Source of the DNA: Candidatus Micrarchaeota archaeon
GTDB taxonomy: Archaea; Micrarchaeota; Micrarchaeia; Anstonellales; Bilamarchaeaceae
NCBI GenBank assembly: GCA_038046805.1
Contig: JBBSVO010000006.1
Span: 43,081-100,351 of the forward strand
Direction: 5' to 3'
Length of the DNA: 57,271 nt
Within the stretch, counting starts at the first letter, position 1. Each line of letters starts with the position of its first letter. Shown piece by piece: positions 18,001 to 21,000 of this stretch. The position numbers were made by a program.

Positions 18001-21000
18001 CGTTCAGCCTGGTGAATCGTATTGTAAACTGGTTTGTTTCCCATGGTTATATCGCAAAACGTGCAAGGTTTTATGAAGTCGTAAGCCCGGTGGCCATCCT
18101 TAATCTTTTTCCGTTGTATAGAAAAATGAAGCCGTTTGCAGTATTTGATATAAACCTGCCAAACAAAGAAGCTCTTAAATTGCTTAAGGCTAAAGGGACA
18201 TTTTGTCTTACTACTGCTCTTTCGTATTATGATGAATACTACCGAGACACTGCGATATACATATATCTGGAAGATAAGAACCTGCTTGAAGAGCTAAAAT
18301 CAATGCCTAAAGGTTACACTCATATCGAATGTTACAAGGACGATCTCGGCAGCCATGATTTTGTAAGGAAAGATCATCGCCAAATAACTGACAAAATACG
18401 TACGATAATTGACTTATTTTGCGCTAATAAGACGTATGCTGCAGAAAGATTAATCAAAAAAGAGTGGGTTTGATGAAAGAACTTTACGGCAGAGATATAA
18501 CTGAGCCAAGCCTGAAAGAACTCGAGGAATTTGCGCTATGGTATAATGAAAAGCTCGGGAATTATCCCATACTTGTAGGTGGGTGGGCAGTTTATTGTTA
18601 TACCAAAGGTCTTGGGTCAAAAGATATTGATGTTGTTTTCCTAGGAGATAAAGCGAAGCATGTAACATTGTTTGATTACTTTCGATCGCATGGCTACAGC
18701 GAGCGTACGAGAACTTTCTTTGATAAGGAATTCGTAAAGATTGTCAAAAACAAAAACAATGAAGTTGAAATTATTATCGATGCAGTGTCCTCAAACAGAA
18801 TTATAATTTTTGAAGGCAGAAAAACAAGGCTTTCTTGGGATTTGGCAGTCAGGAACAGTGTAAAACACAAAATAGGGGATGCTACGGTCTATATTCCAAC
18901 CCTCGAATTGTTATTGACTTACAAGCTTGGGGCAATTCTTGGCAGGAATATAAATCTAAGGACAGGGTTGGATACAAATTATTACCGTTCAAAATTATGG
19001 AAGGATGTTTATGATGTGATTTCTTTATCTAAATTTGAGATGAATGCAGGTACCTTACATAATTTCTTAACCCGATCAAAATTATACGATTACAGGAGCG
19101 AAATTATGACTGCTATAGAAGATAATTATGACGATGAAATACGTTCTCTGTTAAACGACACCTCTTTGATCAAAATCAGAAAATTGCTTGGTGCTGATGG
19201 AGATAAATTATAATTCGTTTTTTATTTCTCCAAATCTCTCACAAACCCTTCAATCTCTTTCAGCGCATCCTGTTGCTTCTCGTGCTTGTTGTAAATTTCG
19301 ATTATCTTACTCCCGACGATAACTCCATCTGCCCCTGCCTTCACGTACTCTTGTGCCTGCTCTTTTGTTGAGATTCCGAACCCTACGCACAAACGGTTGT
19401 TATTCTTGTTGCCATTCACAAATTGTGGGTCGGATACCCCGCTGCTTGCAGCGTCCACAATTTGTGAAGTAGTGACCGAATGAGCGCATACCCCACTGCT
19501 CACAGTGGGGACTCTTCGGTCACTTTGATTTCCCGCGAGCAAGCGGATTCTCTTTACGAATTCAGTGGATTCCGGACTTACTCCGTCCTTTGTTCCAGTC
19601 GTACCTGCACTTGAAACCAAATAGGTAAATGGCGCGTTCGTATTGCGGCTATTTTCAAGTATTTGTTCCGCCCGTTCGTTTGTTGTATTCGGCGCAATTA
19701 AATTGATTATTGAAATTCCGCACGATTCTGCGAGCTTCTCGAATTCCACGTCCTCGCCGAATGGCAAATCAGGAATGATGAGTCCTTGTACTCCGGTTTC
19801 TTTCATCCTTTTGAGAAACATCTCGCATCCGTACGCATAAATTATGTTGAAATACGTCATAAACACGAACGGCACTACTACGACTTTGTCCGTTCCGTTT
19901 GTTATGTCCGTAATCGTTCCGTTTGTATTTGTTCCGTTCTCGCGTAATCTCGCAACCATTTCAAATATCTGTTCGATAGTTGTTCCGTTCGCAAGCGAGC
20001 GGTTAGCTGCGGCCTGAATGGTTTTTCCGTCCGCAATCGGGTCTGAGAATGGAATTCCCAATTCAATTATATCGGAATGGGGCGCAAGTGTGCGGACTAA
20101 CTTCTCAGTAAATTCAATGGAAGGATCTCCGCAGCAGACGTATGGGATAAATATCATAACCCTGCGCCTCCGGATTCTATTTTCGCCACATGCTCCACGT
20201 CTTTATCTCCCCGCCCTGAAAGATTTACGATGATTATTGAGCCGCTTTCACACTGCGGAACGAGCTTCTTCAAATATGCAATCGCATGCGCACTCTCAAG
20301 TGCTGGAATTATGCCCTCAGTCTTTGCAAGAAGATGGAATCCATCCAATGCCTCTGCATCTGTTATGGAAACGTATTCCGCTCGCTTCAACTCATGCAAT
20401 TGTGAATGTTCCGGACCAATCGCAGGATAATCCAAACCAGCAGAGATAGAGTGTGTTCCGCGTATTTGTCCGTCGCGGTTCTGTAATACGTATGTAAGAG
20501 TCCCGTGGAGTACGCCTTTTTTCCCATCACCACTTATCCTTGCAGCATGTTTTCCGCTTTCAATCCCTTTTCCTCCTGCTTCAACTCCGATCATGCGTAC
20601 GTTCGGCTCACCAACAAATCCGGAAAACAATCCTATCGCATTGCTCCCGCCACCAACGCATGCGACAAGCGTATCAGGAAGTCTTCCTTCTGCCTCAAGA
20701 ATCTGTTTTCTTGCCTCTGTTCCTATCACGCTTTGGAAATGTTTTACGATTGTTGGATAAGGGTGCGGTCCAAGAGCAGAACCGAGAAGGTAGTGAGTAT
20801 CCTTGAAATTCGTTGCGTAATCCCGCAATGCTTCGTTTATCGCGTCCTTTAATGTTTGTGTTCCGCTTTCAACTATTCGCACATTTGCTCCGAGCAGTTT
20901 CATACGATAGACGTTCAGTCTTTGCCTTTCTGCATCTTCCTTGCCCATATAAACATCGCATTCCAGTCCAAATAATGCGGCGGCAGTAGCTGTCGCAACT

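Follow-up and report, generated by a model that had tools for sequence, protein, structure and literature searches.

Results of our analysis indicate that the palindromic DNA carried in frame by the tryptophan synthase alpha gene (trpA) and by the CarB, A-type ATP synthase subunit I (AtpI), and M24 peptidase genes of a Micrarchaeota archaeon most likely consists of PATEs, i.e., transposase-less derivatives of IS200/IS605 elements, which would have been moved by the transposase TnpA and would have survived as in-frame loops. This reading is based on the observed anatomy of the inserts, their kinship to IS ends, the covariation of their guides and insertion sites, empty sites in relatives, reading frame, and the conservation of host genes. 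The genome under study (G000) is a 1.2-Mb assembly, 86% complete, in which our own gene calls comprise 1182 genes (88% coding); labelled metagenome runs that contain the sequence come from groundwater or aquifers. The window is the whole stretch of DNA that was analysed around trpA (57,271 nt); other positions in G000 are given by contig (C2, C3, and so on).

The product of trpA matches Pfam Trp_syntA (1.9e-67) and TIGR00262 (229.5 bits vs. a cut-off of 102). Its AF2 model predicts an intact barrel, with 210 residues of pLDDT >=90 and a TM of ~0.83 to solved TrpA, whereas the insert, which follows helix 6 and precedes strand 7, is left unmodelled, its low pLDDT reflecting missing alignment depth. 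We take this position to be the barrel face opposite to the active site, as in TIM barrels generally. The gene and the predicted parts of the inserted element are as follows:

Window 19222..20157, minus strand: trpA, tryptophan synthase alpha, 311 aa, with the 38-aa insert at residues ~210-248
Window 19416..19529, plus strand: putative family A PATE, 114 nt (38 aa), with boundaries from alignment with kin copies; the IS top strand is the window plus strand, antisense to trpA mRNA
Window 19412..19415, plus strand: left cleavage/target tetramer (C_L), CCAT, host-derived and outside the element
Window 19415..19468, plus strand: outer stem 1, which encloses the left guide and hairpin; its arms covary across kin
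Window 19433..19436, plus strand: left guide tetramer, GATA, 5' of the hairpin foot
Window 19437..19453, plus strand: left subterminal hairpin, identical together with the guide (20/20 nt) to DNA upstream of tnpA in G012:C6 (L092)
Window 19471..19524, plus strand: outer stem 2, which encloses the right guide and hairpin; its arms covary across kin
Window 19487..19490, plus strand: right guide tetramer, CATA
Window 19491..19510, plus strand: right subterminal hairpin, with a loop changed relative to the intergenic twins
Window 19526..19529, plus strand: right cleavage tetramer (C_R), TGAT, the last four bases of the element

Read along the window plus strand, the order is CCAT (host), outer stem, GATA, hairpin, outer stem, CATA, hairpin, TGAT. 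The region folds with z = -6.0, none of 200 shuffles being equally stable, and an Rfam scan of 11 loci returned tRNA only, with no family on the inserts and no ribozyme. The genome-wide survey's note had described the TrpA insert as 124 nt, or 42 aa; alignment with kin copies shortens it to 114 nt (38 aa), the remainder being host loop.

Two other features of trpA were observed. Residues ~75-91 (window ~19890-19945) constitute a second, G000-specific insertion of 17 aa, which is Thr/Asn/Gly-rich, contains short direct repeats, and is non-palindromic. The 3' end of the gene is duplicated over 98 nt with 73% identity (window 17690-17786 vs. 19240-19337), and the position of the duplicate beyond two ORFs without a Pfam match (17880-18473 and 18464-19213) suggests an old integration at the trpA end. 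A comparable 3'-end duplicate, of the aminotransferase gene discussed below, is present at C7:137034.

Besides the TrpA insert (family A), the following inserts had been noted:

C4:99769-99909: CarB insert, family B, 141 nt (47 aa)
C11:44040-44153: AtpI insert, family C, 114 nt (38 aa)
C6:230255-230302: DNA ligase insert, family D, 48 nt (16 aa)

Palindromes do lie in frame in these four genes; they leave the frames open and fold strongly. The lengths given earlier for the AtpI and ligase inserts (38 and 16 aa) hold, with their ends refined, while the CarB insert, put at ~41 aa, proved to be of 47 aa. Each insert was said to have a non-coding copy in the same genome, and blastn retrieved one in every case (E-values of 1e-49, 4e-63, 2e-29, and 6e-8): two near-identical copies of the TrpA insert lie at other places in the assembly, and intergenic twins in G000 were likewise found for the CarB, AtpI, and ligase inserts. 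The division into four different families is broadly right, but a two-stem plan is common to the AtpI and ligase types, and there are short intermediates. Absence from relatives, claimed for all four inserts, was found for TrpA in 12/12 relatives that span the site (the sister genome G001 ends short of it), for CarB in 13/13 aligned relatives (among 23 other genomes with a match), for AtpI in 4/4, and for ligase in 5/5.

An assembly check was made for the TrpA insert. Its right junction is crossed with no differences by a contig of run X7, which is not flagged as a source of the assembly; the left junction is reached by run X1 alone, a possible source, with 28 nt inside the element vs. a bridging bar of 31 nt. 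None of the four runs contained an empty TrpA site in its contigs, which drop rare variants.

The G000 genome contains additional inserts of this kind. The M24 peptidase gene bears a 123-nt insert of family E between two Glu-bearing motifs, and a class V aminotransferase gene a 48-nt insert, each absent in 5/5 relatives. A family-wide methyltransferase bears an insert as well, the ends of which are uncertain; it is absent in 7/7 relatives. TrpA, CarB, AtpI, ligase, and M24 peptidase genes are each single-copy in this 86%-complete assembly, and the aminotransferase gene is represented elsewhere in G000 just by a 3' fragment. The eighth genic copy lies in an orphan ORF at C7:73733, which we do not count as a solid case, as it has no homologue outside the insert in five genomes. 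Altogether, 8 of 27 G000 copies of the five families are genic, as compared with 88% of the genome that is coding, and all eight are in frame. This indicates that genes are strongly avoided and that the genic copies are survivors.

One could argue that the insertions are harmful or inactivating and that the host genes, which are assumed to be essential, are decaying in a host-dependent organism. Disruptive copies do persist, as indicated by a family A copy of non-3n length (113 nt) that splits the gene of a PEP-utilising enzyme into two frames in a related genome (L024, G020:C67:6027-6131), either by disruptive insertion or by a later indel. However, all seven host genes that were compared with G001 are full-length and open, with dN/dS of 0.05-0.13, a range that includes the time preceding insertion. 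The catalytic motifs beside the inserts are intact (TrpA ELGIPFSDPIADG, ligase RFPR, and both M24 Glu motifs), and the sites are loops whose length varies among orthologues, so that we find decay of these genes extremely unlikely. Removal of the CarB element at the predicted points restores LSRELL, and that of the M24 element YFNSFGVRF, as in orthologues. The CarB peptide had no match in a search of proteins of 192-613 aa. The claim of the survey that the inserts add loops stands at the DNA level and by conservation; they probably add extra protein loops, which would be translated and tolerated.

The kinship of the inserts to IS200/IS605 ends is the basis for their assignment. Elements of families A, B, C, and E bear subterminal palindromes at both ends. 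In G000 the elements are of 48-141 nt, and in kin they reach at most 196 nt with nested repeats, which is too short for a transposase. Family A hairpins match a tnpA element of G012 at either end (20/20 and 19/21 nt), family C matches a hairpin upstream of tnpA in G074 (23/26 nt), and family E a tnpA right end in G005 (25/28 nt). In the case of family B, 24/24 nt are shared with element ends in G073, G050, and G061 (the G073 element gene is tnpB according to Pfam) and 21/24 nt with the end of the resident G000 tnpA (C3:134364). This single tnpA of G000 is B-like at its right ends, and a left hairpin is not evident. No tnpA with A-, C-, or E-type ends was found in the 86%-complete G000 assembly, and such ends lie beside tnpA in other genomes. 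Elements of families A, C, and E consist of two side-by-side stems without terminal inverted repeats, whereas in family B a 13-bp stem, formed from the right hairpin arm, joins the two ends. Judged by these sequence features, and together with the mechanism set out below, it is very probable that families A, C, and E, as well as B with the caveat of its end pairing, are PATEs as defined in PMC3119063.

The 48-nt doublet of the ligase, aminotransferase, and methyltransferase genes (family D) was considered as a PATE and rejected, as it is devoid of guide and target signals and of an IS-like hairpin: its hairpins have no match to IS ends, and its seven copies share no common target. Intermediates to the AtpI type (family C) exist, and the doublet may have arisen from that type by shrinkage.

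In many tnpA genes of the kind considered here, a structured leader is conserved immediately ahead of the start codon, in addition to the left-end hairpin (L085, L086, L087, L089, L090, L094, L097, L104-L107, and L058; no Rfam match in the loci scanned). The autonomous family A IS (L092, G012:C6) and a C-type element (L141, G097:C99) follow the same short upstream sequence, possibly a shared insertion hot spot.

The dependence of insertion sites on guides was evaluated by three base pairs between guide (G) and cleavage site (C). One of them, G4:C4, follows from two published guide/site pairs and general knowledge of these elements. The other two, G1:C2 and G2:C1, constitute the rule of IS608, in which one cut is made 3' of a tetramer flanking the element and the other at its final four bases, each site being set by the guide 5' of the hairpin foot (PMC5934647, PMC3201880). 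Of 126 ends from families A-C, 98 show all three pairs; in this count kin copies are non-independent, and the patterns were written once copies had been seen. Permutation of guides within family-end gives a mean of 64.3, with none of 20000 permutations reaching 98. After collapsing to genome x guide, the rule holds in 48/63 cases vs. 27.2 by permutation. Five family B left ends of ambiguous start (L121, L115, L113, L125, and L136) and two false family C matches were left out before the count, the pattern missed family A left ends of G012 (three TGAT and one TAAT, with guide CATA), and families D and E are outside the 126 ends.

With rare guides, the site shifts in the predicted way: CGTA goes with CGAT, GCTA with GCAT, AATA with TTAT (3/4), GGAG with CCAC (2/3), TATT with TAAA (2/2), and CAAG with TGAC (5/7). 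In a held-out test on 12 copies from a second GTDB family, 22/24 ends obey the rule, and in family E guides GAAA are accompanied by sites TCAT at both ends. In the TrpA element, C_R (TGAT) fits its guide CATA at 3/3 paired positions, and C_L (CCAT) has one mismatch to the guide-predicted TCnT. The rule is broken by 28 of the 126 ends, among them those on the left of the TrpA and AtpI (CATA) inserts and five GATA-guide copies with TGAT. The CarB right site is TCGC.

The pairing bears on the possibility that we are dealing with TIR MITEs or REP/RAYT-type repeats mobilised by a different enzyme, with the outer stems as the real unit and the IS200/IS605-like ends as passive cargo. The outer stems are indeed kept by covariation, some variants have inner hairpins shrunk or replaced (L148, L145, L154, and family D), and the two ends of family B can pair with each other over 13 bp. 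However, the target follows the inner guide, rare variants included, and autonomous tnpA elements of the same family are equipped with outer stems too. In many copies C_L and C_R are unequal, and both follow their guides, which means that they are not a target duplication. The empty sites, known for CarB, AtpI, and M24, likewise indicate no target duplication, and the combination that marks classical MITEs (TIRs plus target-site duplication) was not found. We consider another enzyme quite unlikely.

The presence of EndA (C8:2251) and of many intron-bearing tRNA genes in this genome makes splicing a live rival to the PATE interpretation. The inserts could be archaeal mRNA introns that are cut out by the tRNA splicing endonuclease via BHB-like ends, in which case the proteins would never be enlarged. 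The tRNA introns are long and structured, with one repeat family in about a dozen genes, the epsilon2 enzymes of Micrarchaeota cut relaxed motifs according to the portions of PMC3239211 cited here, and a 13-bp stem joins the ends of the CarB element. Nevertheless, a strict in-frame BHB is absent at 6/7 inserts (null 3-4% each), and the 117-nt BHB candidate reported earlier for TrpA was not recovered by our scans. The HBh' scan finds tRNA D-loop introns, its positive control, and none at TrpA, CarB, AtpI, ligase, and M24; HBh' matches occur at 3/8 inserts as compared with a null of 21-27%, and hBH matches at TrpA and CarB have 2-bp helices, lie off the element ends, and occur at the chance rate. 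No insert family is significantly like a tRNA intron, inserts occur in both orientations, and splicing would not require the reading frame that all eight genic copies in G000 respect. We give the intron explanation very little credence. The only RNA run, X13 (0.23 of words), contains an intergenic twin and not the trpA junctions. Translational bypassing was set aside, as there is no in-frame stop to bypass.

The intron repeat mentioned above is a structured sequence of ~80-100 nt located in the D-loop or anticodon arm of about a dozen tRNA genes (C3:95159, C3:97879, C3:116338, C6:233011, C6:32697, C6:20157, C6:71794, C7:18712, C8:6536, C11:15220, C11:~150, C4:~54200, and C4:~76230). It has HBh'-type ends in the clearest cases and nested hairpin doublets in some copies, gave no blast matches within called protein genes, and looks like a mobile tRNA intron family. 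Hairpin doublets of 55-60 nt with variable, fully paired arms (C3:134895-134957, C4:154484, C3:116398, and many others) have PATE hairpins and tRNA introns as their insertion sites, as well as the DNA directly upstream of the resident tnpA, and are nested in family A copies in G001, G016, and G049. They resemble the SMR-A repeats that target PATEs in Haloquadratum, as described in the relevant part of PMC3119063. G000 also encodes a large paralogous family of Cys-rich proteins of ~250-550 aa, found in 18 repeat regions on C2, C3, C4, and C6 (e.g., C2:41487-44648, C3:47950-52687, and C6:36201).

A search of related genomes identified family A DNA in 22/99 genomes of the GTDB family and 23/176 of the order, family B in 22/99 (many as end hairpins only), and family C in 8/99. 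Family A copies lie in frame in Pop5 and an NFACT protein (G101), Sua5 (G008), a GNAT (G088), and Nre (G119); in G020, an SMC-like protein contains a short copy of the C type. A copy beside S19e in G001:C11 and the NikR copies in G042:C11 and G119 were left out of this count, as they may lie upstream of true starts. A peptide search added three cases, in DapB, methyltransferase, and SufBD sequences of unassigned origin. Among the long in-frame insertions of the arginyl-tRNA synthetase of G124 (L277, C110:5169-5196) is a minimal family A element without outer stems.

The PATE interpretation implies the following course of events. A PATE would arise from the left and right IS ends joined without the transposase. 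As suggested by the anatomy of the elements and by what PMC5027513 and PMC10055086 describe, a Y1 HUH transposase (TnpA) supplied in trans would peel the element from single-stranded DNA. The guide would select, by base pairing, the tetranucleotide 3' of which the element is inserted, and the target would not be duplicated. Most copies that land in genes would be lost, and the survivors would be those with a 3n length, a stop-free frame, and a position in a surface loop; such a copy would remain in the mRNA and be translated as a loop of 16-47 residues. Mobilisation by TnpA, translation of the loops, and activity of the enlarged enzymes are inferred.

A further, tentative idea, which we regard as rather unlikely, is that PATEs are under selection for codon size and stop-free frames, which would give mobile elements a third way, in addition to introns and inteins, of residing in essential genes where 88% of the genome is coding. 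Among non-genic copies, which are kin and belong to families found by their in-frame position, 41/62 are of 3n length, or 25/45 after collapsing (p 0.002), unrelated repeat families having no clear ends for comparison. Nine of ten multi-copy variants are 3n, the 12 held-out copies are all of 111 or 165 nt, and there are 71 open frames as compared with 51 after base shuffling, which ignores palindromy. If the idea is true, scarless excision by TnpA would make added protein loops reversible.

The origin and spread of protein-coding palindromes, such as those of Rickettsia, are treated as open in reviews. In the lineage studied here, the enzyme class can be named, cut sites can be read, a sister species has empty sites, and kin contain autonomous donors, which makes the birth of protein loops from selfish DNA directly testable. 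The lineage also provides a natural catalogue both of re-programmed TnpA guide/target codes and of loops that tolerate insertions, such as those of TrpA, CarB, ligase, and Pop5. The inserted loops can mislead the annotation and phylogeny of Micrarchaeota.

IS200/IS605 elements occur in >65% of Micrarchaeota genomes, and the sections of the report cited for this contain no mention of PATEs (PMC13343696). In the open-access literature, supplements aside, we found no paper that places PATEs in frame within protein genes or describes them in Micrarchaeota, although intragenic PATEs may be listed in the supplements on Haloquadratum. What is new here is the identifiable transposase mechanism and the lineage, and possibly the bias to codon-multiple lengths. 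The anatomy of the inserts (C_L, guide, and hairpin, followed by guide, hairpin, and C_R) and the pairing rule are those described for IS608 and ISDra2, the excision of which is scarless (PMC3201880, PMC5934647, PMC5027513). In contrast to these elements, the inserts are devoid of tnpA and tnpB, and a single family has several natural guide/target codes. IStrons (bioRxiv 10.1101/2023.11.20.567912) and, according to the cited part of PMC2738675, introns of archaeal cbf5 mRNA also spare the host gene, but they are spliced out, while no splicing signal was found here.

PATEs of Haloquadratum (PMC3119063) and Geobacillus (PMC10055086) are, in the descriptions cited, like those of G000: short and transposase-free, with IS200/IS605-like subterminal hairpins and no target duplication, and hit by smaller nested repeats. 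Geobacillus IS elements show guide/site covariation too (PMC10055086). Unlike the PATEs in those descriptions, which include no such case, the ones reported here are recurrently in frame in housekeeping genes; moreover, each end lies within a long covarying outer stem, and lengths lean to 3n. In-frame palindromes are also known from several bacteria with intragenic REPs (PMC10969869, PMC2229807, PMC3733652, PMC2996958), and the palindromic repeats with coding potential of Methanocaldococcus jannaschii (Suyama 2005, cited in PMC2229807 and PMC2996958) are an archaeal in-frame precedent from another phylum. The RPE of Rickettsia and WPE of Wolbachia are, as the inserts studied here, palindromes of 100-150 nt found both in intergenic DNA and in frame in unrelated conserved genes, and an RPE-bearing guanylate kinase stays active (PMC10969869, PMC2229807, PMC3733652). 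However, RPE types end in CGTC, whereas the inserts end in TGAT/TCAT or TCAC/TGAC, and the CGTC repeats apparently have no dedicated transposase, as described in PMC3733652, while the inserts have an identifiable one. The inserts of G000 work like RPE but are not RPE; those of families A, B, C, and E are most likely PATEs.
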